Shown here: positions 12,594 to 45,959 of the stretch, piece by piece
How positions within the stretch are numbered: position 1 is the stretch's first letter
Layout: each line of letters opens with the position of its first letter
Source: a virus
Lineage: Duplodnaviria > Heunggongvirae > Uroviricota > Caudoviricetes
IMG/VR virus record: IMGVR_UViG_2778261505_000002
Direction: 5' to 3' (one strand)
Length of the DNA: 64,000 nucleotides
Position numbers and translations under genes: made by a program
The notes under the pieces: model-generated
What the model saw: only the letters and a program-made list of their open reading frames with translations
Database searches by the model: none
Told to the model about the DNA's origin: nothing

Positions 12594-12729
12594 ACCACAA
12601 ACCGCCAGCGTATTGTTCTGCGATGGAGCTGGGCCTATCTATATCAGCAATAATGATGTGATGACCGAAGAAACCGAACGCCAAATCCTTTTTCACAATA
12701 CGATGGGAGAGAGAGTTTGCGGTTGGTGA
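12544..12729 (+). CDS. o-spanin (Rz1-like outer-membrane lipoprotein)
   Basis: Lipobox (MISG|C) in an ORF overlapping the 3' end of the Rz-like gene in another frame; start set at the internal Met before the signal peptide (track ORF begins at 12514). Confidence 0.65.
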   Translation: MLLPFIVSCMISGCVIKPQTASVLFCDGAGPIYISNNDVMTEETERQILFHNTMGERVCGW

Positions 12730-12738
12730 TGCGAAGTT

Positions 12739-12754
12739 CCCCTCACTTGAGGGG
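12739..12754. terminator. Hairpin between convergent genes (candidate bidirectional terminator)
   Basis: CCCCTC-ACTT-GAGGGG stem-loop between the Rz1 stop and the stop of the minus-strand GNAT gene. Confidence 0.4.
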
Positions 12755-12760
12755 AGTACA

Positions 12761-13282
12761 TTATTCTTCGAACAATTTTTCGATAGATTTTGTAGGATAG
12801 AACAAAGAACGCTCGTTGTTACCAACCAGCTGGATAAAGTCTAAACTTTTATAAAACGCCTTGGCTTTGTCATTTAACGCCTCAACGAAAAGTCCATGAA
12901 TGCCTACAGCAAGAGATGCATTGTACACAACGCGCATTGCATGTGTTACAAGCATTGAGCCAAATCCTTGACCTTGAAGGGACTTGTCCAAAGCCAGCCT
13001 ACCCAAAGTAACACTTGGAACATTCCGATAAGGTACCTTCTTTTGCTGGCTTCTTGAAGGTAAGGACTCCTTTTCAAAGCAGCTACCTGACAAAGTGTAA
13101 TACCCTAACACTTTTGGTCTGCCTTCTTTCGTGCAAAGCACATAAGCGCGAAGAATTTTTCCCTCATGCTGCCTTTTTAAGTGGTTGGTTAAAAAGGCAT
13201 TTAGTGATTCTTCACCGCAATCAAAACCATTCAAATCATAATCTTTCTCTCCAGAGAAAATTTCTATCTTTATATTATCCAC
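12761..13282 (-). CDS. GNAT-family acetyltransferase toxin (TacT/AtaT/KacT-like)
   Basis: GNAT fold motifs (QGQGFGSML, acetyl-CoA binding region); 173 aa; immediately downstream of a DUF1778-type RHH antitoxin gene. Confidence 0.8.
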   Translation of the reverse strand: MDNIKIEIFSGEKDYDLNGFDCGEESLNAFLTNHLKRQHEGKILRAYVLCTKEGRPKVLGYYTLSGSCFEKESLPSRSQQKKVPYRNVPSVTLGRLALDKSLQGQGFGSMLVTHAMRVVYNASLAVGIHGLFVEALNDKAKAFYKSLDFIQLVGNNERSLFYPTKSIEKLFEE

Positions 13283-13289
13283 GAGTAAA

Positions 13290-13559
13290 CTACTCCATGC
13301 TTTTCAGACGATCAGCAGCTCGTTTCAGCTTGTCGTTCGGTGCCGGAGGATTGCTTATAGCGTCCATAACCAGATTCCAGGATTCTTCATTCAGAACTAG
13401 TCTACGGTGTTGCTCTATAACTTTCACGGCACGTTCAGATGCACTGCTAACCATAAACTGAGTAATGCTCTGGTTAGACATTGCGGCAGCTTCCTCGATG
13501 ATGCTTTTATCGTCATCGGTTAATCTCAAATCGATGCGCTGCTTTTTTAGTGCTGACAT
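13290..13559 (-). CDS. RHH antitoxin (TacA/DUF1778-like) of the GNAT toxin
   Basis: About 90 aa; start set at the ATG preceded by AGGAGG (track ORF extends to 13598); operonic with and upstream of the GNAT gene. Confidence 0.75.
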   Translation of the reverse strand: MSALKKQRIDLRLTDDDKSIIEEAAAMSNQSITQFMVSSASERAVKVIEQHRRLVLNEESWNLVMDAISNPPAPNDKLKRAADRLKSME

Positions 13560-13877
13560 GTATTCCTCCTGATGGCCGTGATGTAGGAAGGCCATCAATC
13601 TCCTCTGTTCAAACTGAGTTTTCGACTCAAAAATTACTTTAAAAGGCTATAGCCCATTACGTGTGCATTATCAAATTGTGTACGGCATATCACCGTACTT
13701 GTAATATAGAGGTCATTGTTACTTTTTTCAACAGACAAATACAAGCTATGTTTGCCAATTGTTAATCACAACCTACCATTTAACCTTTACACCGCAGCCG
13801 TAGGCATTTAGGCTATATCACATATAAGAAAACAAGTTGTTTCAGACGATAATTATATACGCAAAGGGAACTCTCCA

Positions 13878-14546
13878 ATGACCAAGATCTTTGTGGTTGG
13901 CGGCACAAAGGGCGGGCCTGGCAAATCCACCGTTGCCCAGCAAATTGCCGTTTGCCTGAAAGTCAAAAAGAAGAAGAAGGTTTATATTACCGATATAGAT
14001 ATTCAGCGCACGACAACGAGCTGGTGTGAAGACCGTCGACAGAACGAAGACCTTGAGCTGATTCCTTTTGCATACGTTCAGGATGACATCATTAAGCACC
14101 TAAAATCGCTTCAGGGTAGAGCTGAGTTTGTAGTGGTAGATGCTGGTGGCTTCGACTCCGAAATTCAGCGACAAGCGATGCTGATGGCTGACGTTATCAT
14201 TATCCCGCTGCGTCCTAAGCGTCGTGATTTGAAATCTTTACGTGACATCGATCCTATTATCGACAATGTTCGCAATGTAAACGATAAAGTGAAGGTCCGC
14301 GCGGTCATGAACCAGTGCCCGGCTTTGCCATCACAAGTGTCTCGCATTCTGGCGGCTAAAGAGATTGTTGAGACGTTTGGAATCGAGTCTGCGCCAGTCA
14401 ATCTATATAACCGCAACGTCTATGATGATGCGGAAGAGTCTGGTCGTTCTATCTTTGAAATGACCGGTAGCGAGCGCGACAAAAAGGCGGAAGCCGAGTT
14501 TGAAGAATTTGTAGATTATCTGTTGAGTCTGGAGGAAGAAGAATAA
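13878..14546 (+). CDS. parA: ParA-family partition ATPase
   Basis: Deviant Walker A (GGTKGGPGKST); 222 aa; followed by a small basic ParB/ParG-like gene whose start overlaps the parA stop. Confidence 0.85.
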   Translation: MTKIFVVGGTKGGPGKSTVAQQIAVCLKVKKKKKVYITDIDIQRTTTSWCEDRRQNEDLELIPFAYVQDDIIKHLKSLQGRAEFVVVDAGGFDSEIQRQAMLMADVIIIPLRPKRRDLKSLRDIDPIIDNVRNVNDKVKVRAVMNQCPALPSQVSRILAAKEIVETFGIESAPVNLYNRNVYDDAEESGRSIFEMTGSERDKKAEAEFEEFVDYLLSLEEEE

Positions 14547-14905
14547 TGTCCATGAAAATGGGTGACCTAGCAAAGCGCAAAGAGCCTGATGCACCGGCTA
14601 AGAACACAACTCCTTTGCGCCAACCAGTCAGACCACAGGGACGCCCGACTCGTGGCAAAGAGAAAATTAAAAGCCGCACAATGTCACTGGAGGACGAATA
14701 CTTCGAACTGCTGGAGATGATGAAGTTCATCCCTCGCTTCGAGAAGTTCACTCGTTCTGACGTGATTCGAGCAGCCATTTTCCATCTGGCAGAGAAGTCA
14801 CCGCAGGAAATCGAGGACATCGTGAAATTGAATGAGGCGATCACCGCTGCCGATGTCACGATGCGTACCGATGAAATCAAACGAGAGTTGATGAAGAAAG
14901 GTTAA
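14546..14905 (+). CDS. Small centromere-binding partition protein (ParG/ParB-like, type Ib)
   Basis: 119 aa, basic N-terminal tail, operonic with parA (overlapping start/stop). Confidence 0.6.
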   Translation: MSMKMGDLAKRKEPDAPAKNTTPLRQPVRPQGRPTRGKEKIKSRTMSLEDEYFELLEMMKFIPRFEKFTRSDVIRAAIFHLAEKSPQEIEDIVKLNEAITAADVTMRTDEIKRELMKKG

Positions 14906-14910
14906 AAATC

Positions 14911-14941
14911 ATGCATTGGCGCGTACATTGCGCCAATGCAT
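14911..14941. terminator. 12-bp perfect hairpin between convergent genes (terminator or protein-binding site)
   Basis: ATGCATTGGCGC-GTACATT-GCGCCAATGCAT; a T-run follows on the minus strand. Confidence 0.5.
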
Positions 14942-14957
14942 AACTACAGTGTCAGCT

Positions 14958-15725
14958 TTATGCCGCGCTAACACTATGTTCAGTCCTAACCACCCCAACC
15001 TTCACAAAAGGGCTACCGTAGCTTGGTGGCTTCTTGATTAATTTGCCTACATACAGTTTTCTAATATGCTCATCGGCTATTCTGCCAACAAATTCATAAC
15101 GTTTTGTGTCGGGGCCAAGAGCTATATCCCTTGTAAAGTACTGCTGAGAACCGGCTTTGACCCAGCATTCAATCTGATAAACTTCCATTATCAGCCCACC
15201 ATATGTAGCGTAGGCATATTTGAGATTCTCGTCTCTTGGAACCTTTGCCCATACGCCACGCGTAGCTTCATATAATGCCAGAGCGGACATTCCTGACTTG
15301 TAGGTGCTGTTTAGCAGGAAGGCAAGACCGGCGTGCTCAGGAGCAATTTCAGTTTCCTCTTGCAGCACTAAGTGATGGTAGGCGTCTAGTGATATTCTGC
15401 CCATCATGGAACCACTTCCTCGTACCTTATTCGTAAGCTCTCCGACCCCCATAAGGTCGATGCATGTCGCCTCAACAAGTTTGGCTGTGGTTTCATCCAT
15501 ACCATGACGAAGTATATCTATGCCTAATTTTTTATTAGCCAAAAGTTCTTTGATCCGCATGGATTTGGGAGAGTCATCGGGATACTTGATGTGATCGAGA
15601 CAACGAGTCGATTTGCCTTTTCCTATGTAAAACGGTCTTTTCATCTTGTCTTCTGTATCATAGAGACAGTAAACATAGTATTTAGCCTTATCCAATGATC
15701 TCGCGTATACCGATAAATCGTCCAT
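14958..15725 (-). CDS. GIY-YIG nuclease-domain protein
   Basis: N-terminal YVYCLYD...PFYIGKGK motif (GIY-YIG); 255 aa; isolated on the minus strand. Confidence 0.6.
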   Translation of the reverse strand: MDDLSVYARSLDKAKYYVYCLYDTEDKMKRPFYIGKGKSTRCLDHIKYPDDSPKSMRIKELLANKKLGIDILRHGMDETTAKLVEATCIDLMGVGELTNKVRGSGSMMGRISLDAYHHLVLQEETEIAPEHAGLAFLLNSTYKSGMSALALYEATRGVWAKVPRDENLKYAYATYGGLIMEVYQIECWVKAGSQQYFTRDIALGPDTKRYEFVGRIADEHIRKLYVGKLIKKPPSYGSPFVKVGVVRTEHSVSAA

Positions 15726-15837
15726 TATTGCATCTCTTTGCTACTGACTAATGCGTTCTATTTTACACATAAGTTTTTAATCAATTTAACAGGCTCAAAG
15801 TGTAGAGCTTCTGGGCGTCTAAGACGACAAGTTATGC

Positions 15838-23699: not shown

Positions 23700-23774
23700 G
23701 ATGGTGTAGCTCAGCGGTAGAGCAGTTGGCTGTTAACCAACTGGTCGGTGGTTCGAATCCACCCACCATCGCCA
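23700..23774 (+). tRNA. tRNA-Asn (anticodon GTT)
   Basis: Cloverleaf folded by hand: 7-bp acceptor stem GATGGTG/CACCATC, anticodon loop CTGTTAA, GGTTCGAATCC T-arm, encoded CCA. Confidence 0.85.
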
Positions 23775-23779
23775 ATTTA

Positions 23780-23866
23780 GGGGAGTTAGTCCGTAGAGGT
23801 AGCGGTGTAGACTGTAAATCTACTGTCATTGCGACTCGGGTGGTTCGACTCCATCACTCCCCACCA
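23780..23866 (+). tRNA. tRNA-Tyr (anticodon GTA), long variable arm
   Basis: Acceptor GGGGAGT/ACTCCCC, anticodon stem-loop GTAGA-CTGTAAA-TCTAC, long variable arm, T-loop TTCGACT, CCA; D-arm pairing is atypical. Confidence 0.75.
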
Positions 23867-23870
23867 AATT

Positions 23871-23946
23871 GCCGGTTTAGCTCAGTTGGTAGAGCGCCTG
23901 CCTTGTAAGCAGGATGTCAGCGGTTCGAGTCCGTTAACCGGCACCA
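23871..23946 (+). tRNA. tRNA-Thr (anticodon TGT)
   Basis: Acceptor GCCGGTT/AACCGGC, D-arm GCTCAGTTGGTAGAGC, anticodon loop CTTGTAA, T-loop TTCGAGT, CCA. Confidence 0.85.
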
Positions 23947-24163
23947 ACACAACAGGAAAGAGCATTGAAAACCGCCGAGACTGCCCTGTTTTAAGCGTAA
24001 GTCCGTGCAAACGTCATACAGTGCTCTTTTCGTTGTGGTTGATGCGCAGACTGATGCGCGGAAAGAAATGCCCCAGCGACACACGAGGCGAGTTCACACA
24101 CTGCAATGCAGTCAGTAGCCGGGGTCGCTAAGCCGGAGATCAGTACCGGTAACCACAACAATT

Positions 24164-24250
24164 GGAGAGTAGGGAGCATGGTGCTCAAGCGGTCTTGAAA
24201 ACCGTCCCATTGTGCAAGCGATGATGGTTCGATTCCATTACTCTCCGCCA
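24164..24250 (+). tRNA. tRNA-Ser (anticodon TGA), type II with long variable arm
   Basis: Acceptor GGAGAGT/ACTCTCC, anticodon loop CTTGAAA, 17-nt variable arm, T-loop TTCGATT, CCA. Confidence 0.75.
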
Positions 24251-33900: not shown

Positions 33901-34460
33901 CGTTTGAGATGAACCCCAAACGTTCGGCTGAAATTAACGCACTCATGACACGGATGGCGGCTGAAATGGGCTTAGGTGATGAACTAATCCGCCCCAGCAT
34001 TGGTATTAAGCCGAAAATCATGATCATTCTGGACAATGCGAACGGCAATGATGCTCGAACCGGTTACTTCATGGAGAACGGATACGACGACTTTAAGGCC
34101 AAGCTATTGACGGCTGGAGATTTACGCATGGGCGATCTCTATGTCACAGGCGTTTGCAAGAAGGTTAAAGACAAAGAAAAAGACTACACCAAAGACGAGA
34201 TCGGCCAGTTCACCGACTTTATACGTGAAGAGATCAATCTGGTGCGTCCGACCTATGTGCTGACGTGTGGCAGCCGGGCAACGGCATTGTTTAACAACAA
34301 AAACAAGCCATCCGATTTGGTCGGCAGGAAGGAGTATCTTCCAGACCTTGACGTTACTGTCTTTTACGGGTTTAACCCCAACATTCTTTACTTCAGACCT
34401 GAAGAGGGAGAACGACTAGAAGCGATATTAGCCGACGTAGCAGAAACTATTAAGACGTGA
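30942..34460 (+). CDS. dnaE: DNA polymerase III alpha subunit (DnaE-type, with PHP domain)
   Basis: 1172 aa; N-terminal PHP-like start, polymerase core motifs GPGRGSSAGSLVAWCIGITNVDP and FERFINPER...DADLDF, downstream HhH-like segment. Confidence 0.9.
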   Translation: MKALMVRTDFSLGESALKAENAVKIAREAGYTAVISADSMNIASVIPLQRAAGDDMAVICGVKLNIVDDPTYEHRAKLAKESMRCMESLERGRNYSFTALIKNEKGYRDICELMTAANTREQFYFVPRLSLEQLVSTYAKGNIILLTSDIGSVFQRNDFAKIISTLITAGGKDNFYSVVYPHPTPFYDQINVRAMKVASALKIEPVAFYPAYYESIDDADIKDIAHMVTNNIKIDQPHRLRIPHQRDNAVNGRRHLLEALKAFSVRMDVPVTAAMASTTQDTIIDACTWRWHELPPALPKMADDEPATLMKLAVAGLRKRLTTKEFGYTPPASENRVYVERLKYEMDTLTRLGFCGYFLMVRDLMNHSRETGIPVGPGRGSSAGSLVAWCIGITNVDPIRHGLLFERFINPERLDLPDADLDFSQARRHEVIEYLNERYGEDYVAGIPNFTYLGAASALRDTARIYGVESADMAVSKELRNVEDDSLPLEELREQLASLDKYATKYPDAFNAACKLQSLMRGFGRHAAGMIVAGVPLTERTPVERRGDARCIAFDKRYCEAMGLIKLDVLGLATLDLLDSAKRYIKENTGEDINLDAISLEDRKVLDGFAAGYTQGVFQLESGPMRKLLKDLGGGIEPMSFKTVVATTALFRPGPIQSGMLDDYVSVAKGFMTPESLHPVLDELTAETNGVILYQEQTMNATRLLAGFTMAEADGVRKAIGKKDMEKMKSMGEKFIVQAQAGWIDVELEDGTTQRIHRAEHFKCEDGTLKTVEEALEYGAKLPINAVRVTASHPGLSEMKAKEIWTAFEKNGAYQFNKSHSVAYSLISYQSMWLKTHYPAEFFAAALTILGEDKHQGLVKDALTYGIRVLPPDVNVSSNRIEIRTLEDGSQVLYAPFSAVKGCSENGCQAIMRAREKVGGKFESLAQFEEAVEKRACNSRVRESLQKVGAFASIEPGSLPATDPERLRDQAELMGNLVIDAVKASRPFEMNPKRSAEINALMTRMAAEMGLGDELIRPSIGIKPKIMIILDNANGNDARTGYFMENGYDDFKAKLLTAGDLRMGDLYVTGVCKKVKDKEKDYTKDEIGQFTDFIREEINLVRPTYVLTCGSRATALFNNKNKPSDLVGRKEYLPDLDVTVFYGFNPNILYFRPEEGERLEAILADVAETIKT

Positions 34461-34468
34461 TCCCATAA

Positions 34469-34495
34469 ACATGGCCTCTATGGCCATGTTTTCCC
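34469..34495 (+). terminator. Rho-independent terminator
   Basis: AACATGGCC-TCTAT-GGCCATGTT followed by TT run. Confidence 0.6.
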
Positions 34496-34585
34496 TTATC
34501 CCCTCATATCCCCTATCCTCGAACTCCTTGCCTTATCATCACAATGATATAATCAATATAAGATGATAAGTAAAAAGGAAAGCAC

Positions 34586-35017
34586 ATGATCACCGATATT
34601 TACGAGAAAATAATGTCTGATCTCGAGTTTGACCGAGACAATCTGGAGGAAGTCTGGCGTAGACAACCCCGCCTTTTAATGGAGTATGGCTCAAAACTCG
34701 CTCATGCAGAAAGAAGTGTCGCAGAGGCAAAACTTAACCTTGAAGCTGTTGAAGCAAAGCTATACGACACAGAGCGTAAGAACTTGAGTATGAACGGCAT
34801 TAAGTTCAACGAATCTGTACTGGACGCTAAGGTTAAAACAAACCCACAGTATCTGTCTAAACGGCAGAAGTTGGATGAAGCACGGCACATCGCAGACATA
34901 TACAAACATGCTGTCGCCGCCTTTTCGCATCGCCGAGACATGATCGTTCAGGCGTCAAAGATGGCCATCGTTGAATTAGAGCGATTAGGCTCTGAACGCT
35001 TTATTACTCCCCGTTGA
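34586..35017 (+). CDS. Hypothetical protein; possible recombination mediator (UvsY-like)
   Basis: 143-aa mostly helical ORF directly upstream of the gp32-like SSB; UvsY-like size and charge pattern only. Confidence 0.3.
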   Translation: MITDIYEKIMSDLEFDRDNLEEVWRRQPRLLMEYGSKLAHAERSVAEAKLNLEAVEAKLYDTERKNLSMNGIKFNESVLDAKVKTNPQYLSKRQKLDEARHIADIYKHAVAAFSHRRDMIVQASKMAIVELERLGSERFITPR

Positions 35018-39682: not shown

Positions 39683-39732
39683 TCGTTATTATCACACACA
39701 AGAAAACAATTTGTTAAAAGGTTAAGTTAATT

Positions 39733-40557
39733 ATGCCCAACCACATTACAAACGAAATCCGAGTCATAGGTGGTACAAATAAACAACGCTTAGATTTCAT
39801 ACGTGCCATAACTAACAAAAAAGGTCTAATTGACTTTAATACCATTTGCAGACGTCCGAAAAGTATAGAAATGGAAGAAAACAATCATATCAGGCGCATG
39901 GCCTCTGCAATGGCGGGCGAAACAGTTTACGACCACATGTTCGGTGAATTAAAAACTCCAGAACAGGTCGAATTAGCTATGCGTGAATCAGGAATGACAC
40001 GCAAGGAAATTCGCAAAATCAAAGAGCAGGCTCTTATGCGGCTTGAGAATTATCGTCGCTATGGCTATTACTCATGGTTTGACTGGTCGCGAGCTAATTG
40101 GGGAACAAAATGGAATGCCTACAACATCGAAATGCCCGTAAAACGTATCCCTACACGTATTAAGTACGGCCATAATTTCCGCCATACACACGTTCGAGCA
40201 TATGCAAAACGAATCTATAAAAAACGTCTTGCAAGACATGCCGCAACTGGTGGTGAGTTGGTGATTCGCTTTGAAACAGCATGGTCTATGCCAAAACCAA
40301 TTTATCAGGCGATGGCTAGAAAGTTCCCGCACCTTGAGTTTGTAATACGTTATGCAGACGAAGACTTCGGCAATAACTGCGGATTCATTTTACTTCGCAA
40401 CGGCAAATGGGAATATGACTACATTGCACCGGCGAATAACGAACAATCGTCAGAAGAAAAAATCAAATGGTGCAAGTTCGCCTTTGAGTTATGTTGTCCT
40501 GGTATCACTCCACAAGAATACGGTCTAAATGAAAAATACGAATACGCCGGATATTAA
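39733..40557 (+). CDS. Hypothetical protein (Trp-rich SWFDWSRANWGTKWNA motif)
   Basis: 274-aa ORF preceded by the AAAACAATTTGTT palindrome; family not recognised. Confidence 0.45.
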   Translation: MPNHITNEIRVIGGTNKQRLDFIRAITNKKGLIDFNTICRRPKSIEMEENNHIRRMASAMAGETVYDHMFGELKTPEQVELAMRESGMTRKEIRKIKEQALMRLENYRRYGYYSWFDWSRANWGTKWNAYNIEMPVKRIPTRIKYGHNFRHTHVRAYAKRIYKKRLARHAATGGELVIRFETAWSMPKPIYQAMARKFPHLEFVIRYADEDFGNNCGFILLRNGKWEYDYIAPANNEQSSEEKIKWCKFAFELCCPGITPQEYGLNEKYEYAGY

Positions 40558-40589
40558 TGCTTTACGCACGAAGCATAGAGGTTAAGAAG

Positions 40590-41330
40590 ATGAAAAGAAA
40601 AATTGAAGAACCAAAAACGACCCTTAATAAACATGGGGAAAAAATTCAAACACACCCAGCGTTCGGTCTTGTGAAAACAAGCCGTGTTAGCACGACTGGC
40701 ATTCGTCTATTTGATTCAGAACTGGAACATAGAGACTATATTGAAATAGGCGTTTACGAGGCTGAACTATCCTTGGATAATGAACGAACCCGGCCACAAA
40801 GGAGTAGCAATAGACGGCCTTTAGTTGAAATTAGACTTAGCCAGGCACAATGGGCTGCTATGGTTAGCAGTTTTGGTGTGGGCGAAGGTGTGCCATGCAC
40901 TATTTCATATAAAACCATTGGCGACTCAATTAGAGTTCATGATATTGCCGAGCAAAAAAGTATTCGACAAAAATTCAACGATCAAATAAAGGCAGCTACG
41001 AATAGTGAGATTGATCGACTTAATCAGCAAGTATCAGAGCTAGGTGAGCTTGTGAAAAAAGGAAGAGCTGGAAAACGTGACCTTGAAGAACTATATAGAA
41101 AACTTGCATCTGCTGTAGCTAACCTTCCTGAAAATCTGTGCTTTGCTACCGAATTAATGCAGGAGCAAATGGATGAAATTGTCTCATCTGGAAAGGCGGA
41201 GATTGAGGCGTATGTTGCAGGCACTGTTATGCGTAAAGGGTTAGCAGCATTAGGCACAGAATCATGCATTAACGATGCTCCTACTGTCTCTATCACCAAA
41301 ATGGAAAGCGGTAAAGAATTACTGCCATAA
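40590..41330 (+). CDS. Hypothetical protein with central coiled coil
   Basis: Start set at ATG after GAGG RBS (track ORF begins at 40557); no motif recognised. Confidence 0.4.
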   Translation: MKRKIEEPKTTLNKHGEKIQTHPAFGLVKTSRVSTTGIRLFDSELEHRDYIEIGVYEAELSLDNERTRPQRSSNRRPLVEIRLSQAQWAAMVSSFGVGEGVPCTISYKTIGDSIRVHDIAEQKSIRQKFNDQIKAATNSEIDRLNQQVSELGELVKKGRAGKRDLEELYRKLASAVANLPENLCFATELMQEQMDEIVSSGKAEIEAYVAGTVMRKGLAALGTESCINDAPTVSITKMESGKELLP

Positions 41331-41398
41331 ATGTATCTGAGGTACTGACAATGCTTTTAATTCAACCTGGGTTCGGTTTAAAGATAAAAAAAGGACAT

Positions 41399-41740
41399 AT
41401 GTTCGGTTTCAAAGAATCGAAACGAAAAATTCTGTCCATTAGATTGCCGTTTATCACCATTCATTGGTTAAACAGAGAGTCAACCGATTATTGGTATAAA
41501 TGTGCTCTGGCCGCATTTAACGACCCTGACTGGTTTATAGAAAACCACCATGCTGTTCGTCAGGCAAAGAGAAAAGCTAATACGACATACATGAAGGCGT
41601 ATCGGAAGGCATGGAAAGAACACCGCGATCGATACCAAAAAGACATGGAGAAACTTGAATTGGAAAATATGGATCTAAGAAGGAAGCTCGGTGAAGCACG
41701 GCGAGATATTGAAGCATATAAACGTCTTGTATCGGAGTGA
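41399..41740 (+). CDS. Hypothetical basic protein with C-terminal coiled coil
   Basis: Start at ATG after AAGGA (track ORF begins at 41351). Confidence 0.35.
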   Translation: MFGFKESKRKILSIRLPFITIHWLNRESTDYWYKCALAAFNDPDWFIENHHAVRQAKRKANTTYMKAYRKAWKEHRDRYQKDMEKLELENMDLRRKLGEARRDIEAYKRLVSE

Positions 41741-41873
41741 ATATGACTTTACATTGTTTTTTCAAAGGGCATTGCTTTTCACTATACAGAAACAGAAATA
41801 ATAATGGGGCATTCTACATATGTAGTAAATGTGGGAGGACAAAATATCTTCCAGATGTCAAATTTGAAGGTCC

Positions 41874-42320
41874 TTGAATGTTTGCATTAAATGGGCAATA
41901 CAGATGATCACAACAGACTTTTCTAAATTAAGTGATTTTGAAATTAACAGACGAGTATGTGAGGCTTTAGATATGGAGGAGTATTTCTTCATACCTGATG
42001 ACGAAGCAGATTTCGATTCGGAGATCCCCACTGACGAAAGAGGTCCTGTTTGGCAGACGTCAAAAAGGGATATTAATGGCTTCCGTGCTTCAAACGGAAA
42101 TTGCTTCAATCCTTGCAACAACCCGGCGGACGCAAAGCCCATTATCGTAGAGAACAGAATTGGCATTATTCCTGCGCCAGAAAATGGATTATGGAAGGCA
42201 GCGCATAGAAAGATTGGTAACGATAATACTCCATACCATATGACTCAAAATGTAAATCCACTCCGCGCCGCCATGATTGTCTTTCTGATGATGAAAGAAA
42301 GTGAGAGTTGTACCGATTAA
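41874..42320 (+). CDS. Hypothetical protein
   Basis: 148-aa ORF; no motif recognised. Confidence 0.35.
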   Translation: MNVCIKWAIQMITTDFSKLSDFEINRRVCEALDMEEYFFIPDDEADFDSEIPTDERGPVWQTSKRDINGFRASNGNCFNPCNNPADAKPIIVENRIGIIPAPENGLWKAAHRKIGNDNTPYHMTQNVNPLRAAMIVFLMMKESESCTD

Positions 42321-42619
42321 TGAATATATACGATTTTTTTAAAAAACCTAACACATGTGTCAGAAAAGGGTATAAACCGTCAGTCATCGATTGCTGGTCG
42401 CTATCAGCAAATAATCTCAACAATGTATTCAAAATGCATTGGGAGTTTCTTTGTGAAGCGCGCGGCGTTCTCGACATGACAGTCAGAGAAGCAATTATCT
42501 GGATTCTTTGGTTTCCGGTAAGAACATTTATGACTCTGACGTACCCATTTACCTTCTGGATTTGGGGAACCGTCCTTTATTTCATATTAAAAGGAGAAGT
42601 AAAACATGGCAGCAATTAA
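42308..42619 (+). CDS. Hypothetical membrane protein
   Basis: 103 aa; Trp/Phe-rich predicted TM segments. Confidence 0.35.
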   Translation: MYRLMNIYDFFKKPNTCVRKGYKPSVIDCWSLSANNLNNVFKMHWEFLCEARGVLDMTVREAIIWILWFPVRTFMTLTYPFTFWIWGTVLYFILKGEVKHGSN

Positions 42620-44125: not shown

Positions 44126-44172
44126 ATGCAAACTGACTGCGGAACGTGCCGCAGTCATATTTCATAGTCGTC

Positions 44173-44705
44173 ACCGCTGACAGCATACACAATCAACTAC
44201 CGCTGATAGCATATCGAGAGTCTATCTCACCGCTCACAGCATACATTACTCGATTTTTTACCGCTGACAGCATACTTAAGAAATTGCATGAATAATGTGT
44301 CCCGGTATGGGTATAACCAGAACAAAATTACCGCTGGCAGCATACGAATGTCTGACATATACCATTAATTACCGCTGATAGCATATCCAAACAAAAATTC
44401 CTCAATAAAACACCGCTGACAGCATACATTCTATCAGAGAGTAGCAGGCAATAAATGCCTTTCACTACAAGCAATCAGCGCAATAGCAATAGAATGTTAG
44501 TGAGCGCAAACCTATATGGAATGCACTCTTCGAGGTTAGTAACCACTGGGGAGGTATGACAGAGCATTGAGTGGTGATAGATGATTTACCGCTCACAGCA
44601 TACGTTCATCTCACTATACCGCTGGTAGCATATCTTTAACCGTTCACAGCATACTTTTCAGAAAAATAGCCGCTGATAGCATACATTTCACCGCTGACAG
44701 CATAT
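44173..44705. repeat. Iteron array downstream of repA (incA-like), about 12 copies of a 16-bp repeat
   Basis: ACCGCTGACAGCATAC and close variants at about 44173, 44199, 44228, 44259, 44329, 44370, 44411, 44587, 44618, 44639, 44668, 44690; variable spacing; ends at the rep stop codon. Confidence 0.85.
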
Positions 44706-45799
44706 CAAAGCAGTTTGAGACTATTGGAAAGGATCTCAATCATCTTGATATTTTCAGGCGTCAAATTCTGCGAAAGTTCGGTTATCTTGTTGATAATGTT
44801 CTGTTTGGCATCAATTTCCCCAGCTTTCTCATCTGGTTTTTTGGGTTCGATGTCTTCAGGTTTTGGCGGTGCGACTTTGAGTTTTGGATTGCGGCTGTGA
44901 ATCTGGATATAGATCGACCGCCCACGCTTAATCTCGCTGTATTCGAGATAGCCCAAATCTTGGAGAGCTTTTAAGCCGTTACGTATAGTCTGATTCTGCG
45001 AGCTGACATTCCTGCTACTCAAATTGAGTCGCGCACGCAATCGAGCAAGCGATACCGGCGCAGGCTTGGTTGGAAGACTTTCGATGAAGGTGTACAGAGC
45101 CTGTGCTGTTTCTTTGCGTGGTAGCTTATTGATAACCTTTAACTGCAAAAGAACCTTATGGTCAAAGCGATATAGTTCGGCCAGCTTCGGTTCTGCATAG
45201 AACACCACCGTATCTTTCTGCTCGTTGTAGTCCACGCTATTGATGAGGTGCACCATCAGAAGCGAGATCTTGTTAGAGCCGTCGACGTTCTTTTCTTCAT
45301 ACGTTCTCTGGAAAGACAGAGTTGTACGCATGATCTTCAAAAGACTGTTTGTAAGCCGGTCGCGGAGTGTTTTGCGGATCTGTGACGATGGATAGCCACA
45401 AAACTTAGCAAATTTCGTGATACTTAACTCGACACGACCGTTAGGTTCGCCGTATTCTGCCAGCGAACGCACAACGCCCACCCACGTTTTGAAATCATGA
45501 TCCATGTCGAGACGAGGACCGGTTATCTTGATATCGGAATAGCCTTCAGAACGGGCTACTTCGAGCTGGACAAGCTCCTTTGAAGCATCGATCTCATTTG
45601 GCTTGTTACGTTTACTGTATTTTGTTCCCTTAAGCGTGGGGACGAACAACCCCAGTCGCATCAACGCAATTGGTTGGACTGTATTGTTGCTATTAGGGAC
45701 AAGTTCCCCTGTGTACAATTCAAGGGAACCTTCTTCAAAGTTGTCGATGTTATCTTCTACTTCTTTGTTATTTTTACCTTTTTTATTTTTTGTGGACAT
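44705..45799 (-). CDS. repA: Plasmid-type replication initiator (RepA-like, iteron-binding)
   Basis: Flanked on both sides by arrays of the same 16-bp iteron; start set at ATG after AAAGG RBS (track ORF extends to 45919 across the upstream iterons); basic protein of RepA-like size. Confidence 0.7.
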   Translation of the reverse strand: MSTKNKKGKNNKEVEDNIDNFEEGSLELYTGELVPNSNNTVQPIALMRLGLFVPTLKGTKYSKRNKPNEIDASKELVQLEVARSEGYSDIKITGPRLDMDHDFKTWVGVVRSLAEYGEPNGRVELSITKFAKFCGYPSSQIRKTLRDRLTNSLLKIMRTTLSFQRTYEEKNVDGSNKISLLMVHLINSVDYNEQKDTVVFYAEPKLAELYRFDHKVLLQLKVINKLPRKETAQALYTFIESLPTKPAPVSLARLRARLNLSSRNVSSQNQTIRNGLKALQDLGYLEYSEIKRGRSIYIQIHSRNPKLKVAPPKPEDIEPKKPDEKAGEIDAKQNIINKITELSQNLTPENIKMIEILSNSLKLL

Positions 45800-45819
45800 G
45801 TGGACACCTTTGTCATTCA

Positions 45820-45921
45820 ACCGCTGACAGCATACTTGATTTGCCGCTGACAGAATACCAAAAACAGTTGGCAGCATACGGTGAACCGCTGACAGACTAT
45901 CAATTACCGCTGACAGCATAC
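45820..45921. repeat. Iteron array upstream of repA (incC/origin-like), 5 copies at ~21-23 bp spacing
   Basis: ACCGCTGACAGCATAC-type repeats at 45820, 45843, ~45864, 45885, 45906, overlapping the presumed rep promoter. Confidence 0.85.
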
Positions 45922-45959
45922 ATGAACATGACTTCAGACCAGTCGTGGCGCGGCTTACA

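Follow-up and report, generated by a model that had tools for sequence, protein, structure and literature searches.

The 64,000-nucleotide stretch of Caudoviricetes DNA analyzed here (IMG/VR record IMGVR_UViG_2778261505_000002, hereafter the window) encodes on its minus strand a toxin-antitoxin (TA) gene pair, namely a ribbon-helix-helix (RHH) antitoxin of the DUF1778 type and a toxin of the GNAT acetyltransferase superfamily. An initial annotation made from the sequence alone had placed this pair at 12761-13559, and these positions proved correct to the base. The layout is bicistronic, with both open reading frames on the same strand, the antitoxin gene directly upstream and 7 nt between its stop codon and the GTG start of the toxin. 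Profile hidden Markov model searches, which had been proposed as a check on the two family names, agreed with both: Pfam identifies the antitoxin as TacA1/DUF1778 (PF08681, 5.7e-26) and the toxin as a GNAT protein through Acetyltransf_7 and Acetyltransf_1 (~1e-6 each, both above the gathering score). An NCBIfam search returned no specific model for the gene pair, and the RefSeq labels of the genes are the generic GNAT and DUF1778.

The 1.5-kb locus has exact matches (100% identity) in plasmids such as CP025888 and p15ODDR and is 97% identical to Escherichia phage Cyrano, a plasmid-prophage of E. coli strain LF82 (PMC9928086). From ~7.3 kb on, most of the window can be aligned to Cyrano, discontinuously and at 84-98% identity. 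Judged by these alignments, the window is an SSU5-like E. coli phage-plasmid, and the earlier description of the element as an extrachromosomal prophage agrees with the 97-100% identity of the locus to SSU5-like E. coli phage-plasmids including Cyrano. The features of the locus are collected in Table 1.

Table 1. Features of the TA locus, with positions in the window
Feature	Position	Strand	Details
Whole accessory cassette	12727-13770	-	1,044 bp; hairpin, toxin, antitoxin, leader, operator, promoter
G+C-rich hairpin	12736-12757		terminator-like on + strand; between convergent Rz1 spanin and toxin genes
Toxin gene, GNAT, AtaT/KacT clade	12761-13282	-	173 aa, GTG 13282 to TAA 12761
Antitoxin gene, RHH (DUF1778/TacA1)	13290-13559	-	89 aa, ATG 13559 to TAG 13290; Shine-Dalgarno (SD) sequence AGGAGG
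5' leader	13560-13679	-	~120 nt, three predicted hairpins; homology to leaders of relatives, covariance model match
Third leader hairpin, SD-adjacent	13570-13597	-	TGATGGCC-N12-GGCCATCA; inverted repeat I7; paired and compensatory columns
Operator palindrome	13680-13698		GTACGG-N7-CCGTAC; predicted antitoxin/TA-complex site; unique in window, shared upstream motif
Sigma-70 promoter	13703-13731	-	-35 TTGAAA (13731-13726), 17-nt spacer, -10 TATATT (13708-13703); 10/12 matches in scan

The initial annotation had credited each gene with a good ribosome binding site. This holds for the antitoxin, whose excellent site consists of AGGAGG at a spacing of 5 nt before the ATG, but not for the toxin. Because the sole SD-like element of the toxin gene is a GGAG located 10 nt before the GTG, within the last codons of the antitoxin, the toxin start appears weak and is probably translationally coupled. 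Weak, coupled toxin starts are usual for type II systems. Less toxin than antitoxin would therefore be expected from this transcript.

In a phmmer search of PDB sequences, matches over the full length of the toxin were obtained with AtaT of E. coli O157:H7 (6GTS/6AJM; 8e-79, 267 bits) and with KacT of Klebsiella pneumoniae (5ZGN/5XUN; 4e-74, 252 bits), while no other solved GNAT toxin scores better than 1e-20 (at most 77 bits), TacT reaching 6e-11 (5FVJ). The best PDB matches of the antitoxin are KacA (7e-42) and AtaR (1e-40). BLASTP comparison with the chromosomal proteins of O157 gave gapless alignments with 69% identity for the toxin and 76% for the antitoxin, and genome-wide relatives of the toxin at 63-72% identity are all found in Enterobacterales loci of the same type. 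On these similarities the gene pair is assigned to the AtaRT/KacAT clade and not to the TacAT clade. The former is known as clade A of the GNAT-DUF1778 toxins (Bikmetov et al., PMC9177977) and as clade 1 in K. pneumoniae (PMC9431474). The earlier label, TacAT-like, thus stands at the superfamily level, that is for the pairing of a GNAT toxin and an RHH antitoxin of the DUF1778 type, but not for the specific family. TacA-TacT of Salmonella shares the superfamily and the aminoacyl-tRNA acetylation chemistry with the window pair but is only distantly related to it, and TacAT was rejected as the specific family on the difference between the TacT and AtaT scores.

AtaR-AtaT (6AJM, 6GTS, 6GTP) has the same gene order as the window pair and similar protein sizes (88 and 89 aa for the antitoxins, 175 and 173 aa for the toxins of O157 and the window, respectively), and KacA-KacT (5ZGN, 5XUN) is about as close a match. 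AtaRT is encoded on the chromosome between livJ and panM and clade-1 KacAT loci are predominantly chromosomal (PMC9431474), whereas the allele described here is borne by a phage-plasmid. Its toxin also differs from AtaT in starting with GTG.

Mutagenesis has identified residues that are important in AtaT and their roles, including G108 in acetyl-CoA binding and Y144 in catalysis (PMC7595197). The window toxin is identical at 15 of 21 such functionally important residues (G108, Y144, L27, F30, H34, R37, S76, S78, K81, K82, P84, Y85, R95, L136 and K165), carries conservative changes at two (R71K and K77R) and differs at four, which are taken up below where the function of the module is weighed. 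In the gap-free alignment with AtaT, the acetyl-CoA motif (Q/R-x-x-G-x-G/A) is present as QGQGFG, which contains G108, and the catalytic Y144 lies in FYKSL. Both genes are under purifying selection, as indicated by low dN/dS values across three allele groups (toxin, 0.07-0.15; antitoxin, 0.04).

A longer antitoxin beginning at ATG 13595 or TTG 13598, annotated in Cyrano as a 101-aa form, was considered and rejected. AtaR and KacA begin at an MSA/MPA that corresponds to 13559, and in an allele of 89% identity (ET350) a 1-nt insertion throws the upstream ATG out of frame.

Operator, promoter and leader RNA

The palindrome GTACGG-N7-CCGTAC begins 4 nt downstream of the -10 box of the sigma-70 promoter. 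It occurs once in the 64-kb window compared with 0.06 occurrences expected by chance. All 21 intact clade-A loci have it ahead of the antitoxin gene, and it is absent where the cassette is absent. Its carriers include ataRT of O157, two other plasmid alleles and 16 chromosomal relatives, with Enterobacter, Hafnia, Leclercia, Lelliottia, Silvania, Cedecea, Rahnella and other genera represented among the chromosomal loci. A TTGAAA and a TATAnT element are found at a constant distance from the palindrome in most of these related loci, including ataRT of O157, where the operator core likewise lies just past the -10 box.

The operator of kacAT is a palindrome across the transcription start which is bound by a KacT-KacA2-KacA2-KacT hexamer with conditional cooperativity, and operator binding by KacA depends on R8 and R12, which are essential, and on D10, which is important (PMC6698736). 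R8, D10 and R12 are all retained in the window antitoxin, and a W-shaped T-A2-A2-T hexamer with conditional cooperativity, as described for KacAT, is expected for the window module by homology. Since the arrangement of operator and promoter matches the description of kacAT, we infer with good support that the operon is autoregulated by the TA complex. At the other end of the operon, a terminator scan located a hairpin with a 9-bp stem that includes 5 GC pairs and falls inside the cassette boundary.

The distance from operator to ATG is 120 nt in the window compared with 21-26 nt in ataRT of O157 (26 nt) and several chromosomal relatives. Homologues of the long leader, for which three hairpins are predicted, are found in pO102-type E. 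coli plasmids, on the chromosomes of Enterobacter soli, Lelliottia and Huaxiibacter and in many metagenome contigs. In a MAFFT alignment of 12 leaders from outside the phage-plasmid group, the third helix is 99% paired and 4 of its 10 pairs show compensatory changes, while in register-shifted controls pairing drops to 21-46% for the three helices together. A covariance model (R1) built from these 12 leaders, and so without phage-plasmid sequences, has a single match in the window, at 13554-13679 on the minus strand (38.5 bits, E 2e-6). In an alignment of 17 leaders fitted to this model, which leans towards it, the third helix is 92% paired with 8 of 10 pairs compensatory. The loop TTCCTACATCAC is the same in the window and in E. 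soli despite differing stems, and its UUCCU is complementary to the SD sequence, with which it could pair.

When RNAalifold was applied to a plain MAFFT alignment of all leaders, the hairpins were not recovered because the phage-plasmid group is shifted by one column out of register, and the model was for this reason built without that group. The folding energy of the leader as a whole is unremarkable (z -0.42), and an Rfam search of the leader and intergenic region identified no RNA family, its lone match being a chance microRNA (E 0.38). The covariation and the model match suggest that the leader is a probable cis-acting RNA element affecting either mRNA stability or translation of the antitoxin. 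The SD-adjacent hairpin is not present in the two structurally characterized systems and offers a small new handle on the post-transcriptional control of GNAT-RHH operons.

The cassette, its slot and its distribution

The module lies between lysis genes and partition genes. Upstream in the window its neighbors are genes for a holin, an endolysin and Rz/Rz1. Downstream, a small ParA (Pfam MipZ/AAA_31/CbiA/ParA) is encoded divergently at 13878-14546, 318 bp from the module, as had been anticipated when the pair was described as adjacent to partition genes. Overlapping the parA stop codon, a plus-strand gene at 14546-14905 encodes a 119-aa protein whose Cyrano homologue is annotated as 'RelE/ParE putative toxin'. 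It has no Pfam match at E <=0.01 and belongs to a PHROG of unassigned function, and its position makes a role as the ParB/ParG-type partner of ParA more likely.

In comparisons with PhiR41_1 and SSU5, homology ends at 12726/12711, where 12726 is the stop codon of Rz1, and returns at 13771, 107 bp before parA. It follows from this break that the TA module forms, together with its own promoter, operator, leader and hairpin, a discrete 1,044-bp cassette. In SSU5 and PhiR41_1, two plus-strand genes (phrog_2594 and phrog_3307) occupy this slot between the Rz1 spanin gene and parA, and in Klebsiella phage pJN2-26 it contains a single unrelated minus-strand gene of 185 aa (phrog_28020). These alternatives were defined by comparing 12727-13770 of the window with the corresponding parts of three loci (L002, 2567-4000; L003, 2578-4000; L008, 2734-3291), and searches of the alternative genes against Pfam and PADLOC returned no match. 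With at least three alternative contents, the slot is a hotspot for cargo genes.

Among PLSDB plasmids, the cassette is present in 145, full length in 143 of them, and the full-length carriers comprise 140 from Escherichia and 3 from Shigella. Most of the listed cassette records are ~95-120 kb in size. A broader query that includes parA matches 232 Escherichia records, compared with the 140 that have the cassette, and ~40% of the Escherichia relatives thus lack it. Full-length copies were also found in 152 of 5,426 complete E. coli genomes. The cassettes fall into three allele groups, at >=99%, ~97% and ~89% identity, and in all 47 independent metagenome and IMG/VR loci with a cassette that is at least 89% identical, it is flanked by the same spanin gene and parA. 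Alleles of the cassette and of its flanks are shuffled relative to each other, as for example in locus L134, where identity is 96% for the spanin gene, 89% for the cassette and 98% for parA.

In comparison with Cyrano, the 5' half of the toxin gene (13034-13279) differs by a dense cluster of ~25 substitutions and the 3' half by a single one, while the antitoxin, leader, operator and promoter (13280-13750) contain none. The segment 13034-13279 looks like a recombination patch within the toxin gene.

A search for the donor of the cassette found no such locus, and no species-representative genome encodes a toxin that is more than 72% identical. Chromosomal ataRT and the cassette share ~65% nucleotide identity. 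At this distance from its relatives, the allele of the phage-plasmids represents a long-resident lineage of its own and no recent capture of ataRT from the chromosome. Chromosomal ataRT, with its shared operator core, is present between livJ and panM in ~1,626 of the 5,426 complete E. coli genomes (~30%). At most 71 genomes contain both ataRT and the cassette compared with 90 expected (odds ratio <=0.72, p 0.016), a figure bounded from summary counts alone by statistics that ignore phylogeny, which we regard as a hint and do not use as evidence.

Predicted role in phage-plasmid maintenance

We consider it likely that the gene pair is a bicistronic type II TA operon of the AtaRT/KacAT clade which serves as an accessory cassette and stabilizes its SSU5-like phage-plasmid post-segregationally. 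The sigma-70 promoter would transcribe the antitoxin gene and then the toxin gene, and the weak GTG start of the latter would keep toxin output below that of the antitoxin. The antitoxin is predicted to dimerize via its N-terminal ribbon-helix-helix, while its C-terminal half would wrap around the toxin and block both toxin dimerization and acetyl-CoA binding. A T-A2-A2-T hexamer seated on the palindrome past the -10 box would repress the operon. Upon loss of the phage-plasmid, the labile antitoxin would decay, and the freed toxin would dimerize, bind acetyl-CoA and acetylate the alpha-amino group of aminoacyl-tRNAs, with Gly-tRNA, tRNAs charged with hydrophobic or aromatic amino acids and initiator Met-tRNA as the likely targets in this clade. 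Translation would halt and plasmid-free segregants would be arrested or killed, the module thus backing up the adjacent ParA partition system.

The biochemical part of this proposal follows from homology. AtaT acetylates Gly-, Trp-, Tyr- and Phe-tRNA as well as Met-tRNAfMet (Yashiro et al., PMC7595197), and toxins of clade A, whose substrates are described in PMC9177977 and PMC7595197, are promiscuous (PMC9177977), while TacT-type clade D toxins are almost specific for Gly-tRNA (PMC9177977). The statement in the initial annotation that toxins of this family acetylate aminoacyl-tRNA is right by homology at the superfamily level. Given 69-76% identity to proteins for which these activities were demonstrated, growth arrest through acetylation of aminoacyl-tRNA by the window toxin and neutralization through direct binding of its antitoxin are predicted.

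Several observations argue for stabilization, namely the low-copy replicon, the position beside the par genes, the predicted autoregulation and the selection acting on both genes. Expression in the carrier state is documented for a close relative. In LF82 lysogens, CYRAN_26 and CYRAN_27 of Cyrano, a 97%-identical copy annotated as a KacT-type toxin and its antitoxin and classed as morons, are expressed 35x and 60x above the prophage background (PMC9928086). The antitoxin transcript thereby exceeds that of the toxin. A low-copy extrachromosomal location and expression in the carrier state, both typical of addiction modules, are thus seen for the window element and for the Cyrano copy, respectively. 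Given that the Cyrano copy has already been published, identification of the module is not new.

Stabilization by a type II TA module has been demonstrated for two functional analogues. Doc, the toxin of one of them, is a Fic-family kinase. The window cassette can be likened by analogy to this system, phd-doc of the phage-plasmid P1 (mentioned in PMC7969092), which promotes the vertical inheritance of its carrier. Closer in type is GmvAT, a GNAT-RHH system on the low-copy element pINV of Shigella, which promotes vertical transmission of this plasmid (PMC6519299), although GmvT itself is a Gly-specific GNAT of clade D (PMC9177977). TA systems are also among the shell genes of SSU5-group genomes (PMC7969092). 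Post-segregational stabilization is the best-supported role, and toxicity, neutralization, lability of the antitoxin and the stabilization phenotype are what we infer for the module.

Four points weigh against this interpretation. First, the cassette is dispensable for the lineage, as SSU5, PhiR41_1 and pJN2-26 hold other genes in its place. Second, chromosomal ataRT, with its 76%-identical antitoxin and the same operator, might neutralize or cross-repress the module and thereby cancel addiction in hosts that have it. Third, the literature consulted on chromosomal AtaRT and KacAT deals with stress response, antibiotic tolerance and virulence, plasmid stabilization by these systems not having been searched for. 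Fourth, the toxin deviates from AtaT at four tRNA-contact or pocket positions (R40E, N41G, K79Q and A26S), and its activity or substrate range may therefore differ from that of AtaT. The tRNA acceptor-stem contacts (H34, R37, R40, N41, R71, S76-K82, Y85, R95 and K165) are otherwise mostly identical or conservatively replaced, and another plasmid-borne allele (pO102) deviates from AtaT at the same four positions, partly with other residues. Activity is predicted for the window toxin, although its preference among tRNAs may have shifted slightly.

The initial annotation had also raised abortive-infection defense as a possible function. In such a device, or in one directed at competing elements, an invader would lower the level of antitoxin and the toxin would then stop translation, the cassette being one of several defense cargos flanking par. 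The next variable slot (14904-15826) indeed encodes a PD-T4-3-like GIY-YIG defense protein (PADLOC, 1.3e-23) of a kind known from SSU5-group phage-plasmids (bioRxiv 10.1101/2025.09.12.675607), the TA module, too, occupies a cargo hotspot, and tRNA-targeting toxins are known immune effectors (PMC12409363). However, a single adjacent defense gene is weak evidence, neither toxin nor antitoxin matches any PADLOC model, and our literature search found no report of phage defense by a GNAT-RHH system. The defense proposal thus gained no support, and we regard a device of this type as unlikely. An extension of the same idea, in which the cassette and the PD-T4-3-like gene across parAB would form a small defense island with acetylation as the immune effector and a leader that tunes antitoxin translation to trip on host shut-off, seems improbable as well.

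Alternatively, the module could act mainly in lysogenic conversion, as a moron whose low-level or stochastic toxin activity causes antibiotic tolerance or persistence or whose acetylation of host proteins affects virulence, with stabilization not being its main effect. The Cyrano homologues were classed as morons that are expressed during lysogeny (PMC9928086), overproduction of KacT induces antibiotic tolerance (PMC6698736, PMC9431474), and acetylation of EspB at K206 by AtaT, enhancing the virulence of enterohemorrhagic E. coli, has also been reported (PMC7957018). Yet it was overexpression that produced the tolerance phenotypes, repression at steady state is predicted from the tight arrangement of operator and promoter, and nothing at the locus ties the module to virulence, which makes this role quite unlikely. 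A purely selfish cassette, which would poison recombinants that lose it and spread by homologous recombination in its conserved flanks at no benefit to the phage-plasmid, is very improbable: shuffling of the cassette alleles (99-100, 97 and 89%) against the flank alleles, the mosaic patch inside the toxin gene and the relatives without the cassette would fit it, but its mechanism is the same as in addiction, only the beneficiary differs, and retention of the par-side site in all 47 loci suggests stable integration into the maintenance region.

A large proportion of the sampled Escherichia SSU5-like phage-plasmids thus carries a translation-blocking toxin of the AtaT/KacT type, a finding of modest importance that leaves the picture of the family unchanged. 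SSU5-like elements can spread resistance and defense genes, and a toxin located beside the partition genes bears on how difficult such elements are to cure. Since a chromosomal ataRT that shares the operator and encodes a similar antitoxin is present in ~30% of complete E. coli genomes, cross-repression or anti-addiction between chromosome and phage-plasmid is directly testable.

Other features of the window

The PD-T4-3-like gene (14958-15725, minus strand), which resembles an anti-phage system consisting of one gene, encodes 255 aa, matches Pfam LEM-3_GIY-YIG and lies in the slot that follows parAB, which is occupied by a DUF2971 gene in Cyrano and SSU5 and by a 357-aa gene in p15ODDR. A plus-strand tRNA cluster at 23700-24250 contains genes for Asn-GTT, Tyr-GTA, Thr-TGT and Ser-TGA tRNAs, of which Cyrano lacks the Tyr gene and has the other three. 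That the extra gene is one for Tyr-tRNA, a substrate of AtaT, is probably a coincidence.

The HicA/HicB pair of Cyrano (CYRAN_50/51) is missing from the window, where ~2 kb of Cyrano sequence is replaced by ~190 bp at 34417-34607. No other TA system was noticed in the window, the remainder of which was not scanned for TA genes. Two further segments are without a Cyrano counterpart. The first, at 39727-42586, encodes DUF1281_C/Api92-like, coiled-coil, 129-aa and NinX-like proteins, and for this 2.9-kb segment (39.7-42.6 kb) Pfam and PADLOC indicated no function beyond DUF1281_C and NinX. The second, at 44126-45932, contains a different allele of a Rep3-type replication initiator gene (44705-45919, minus strand).

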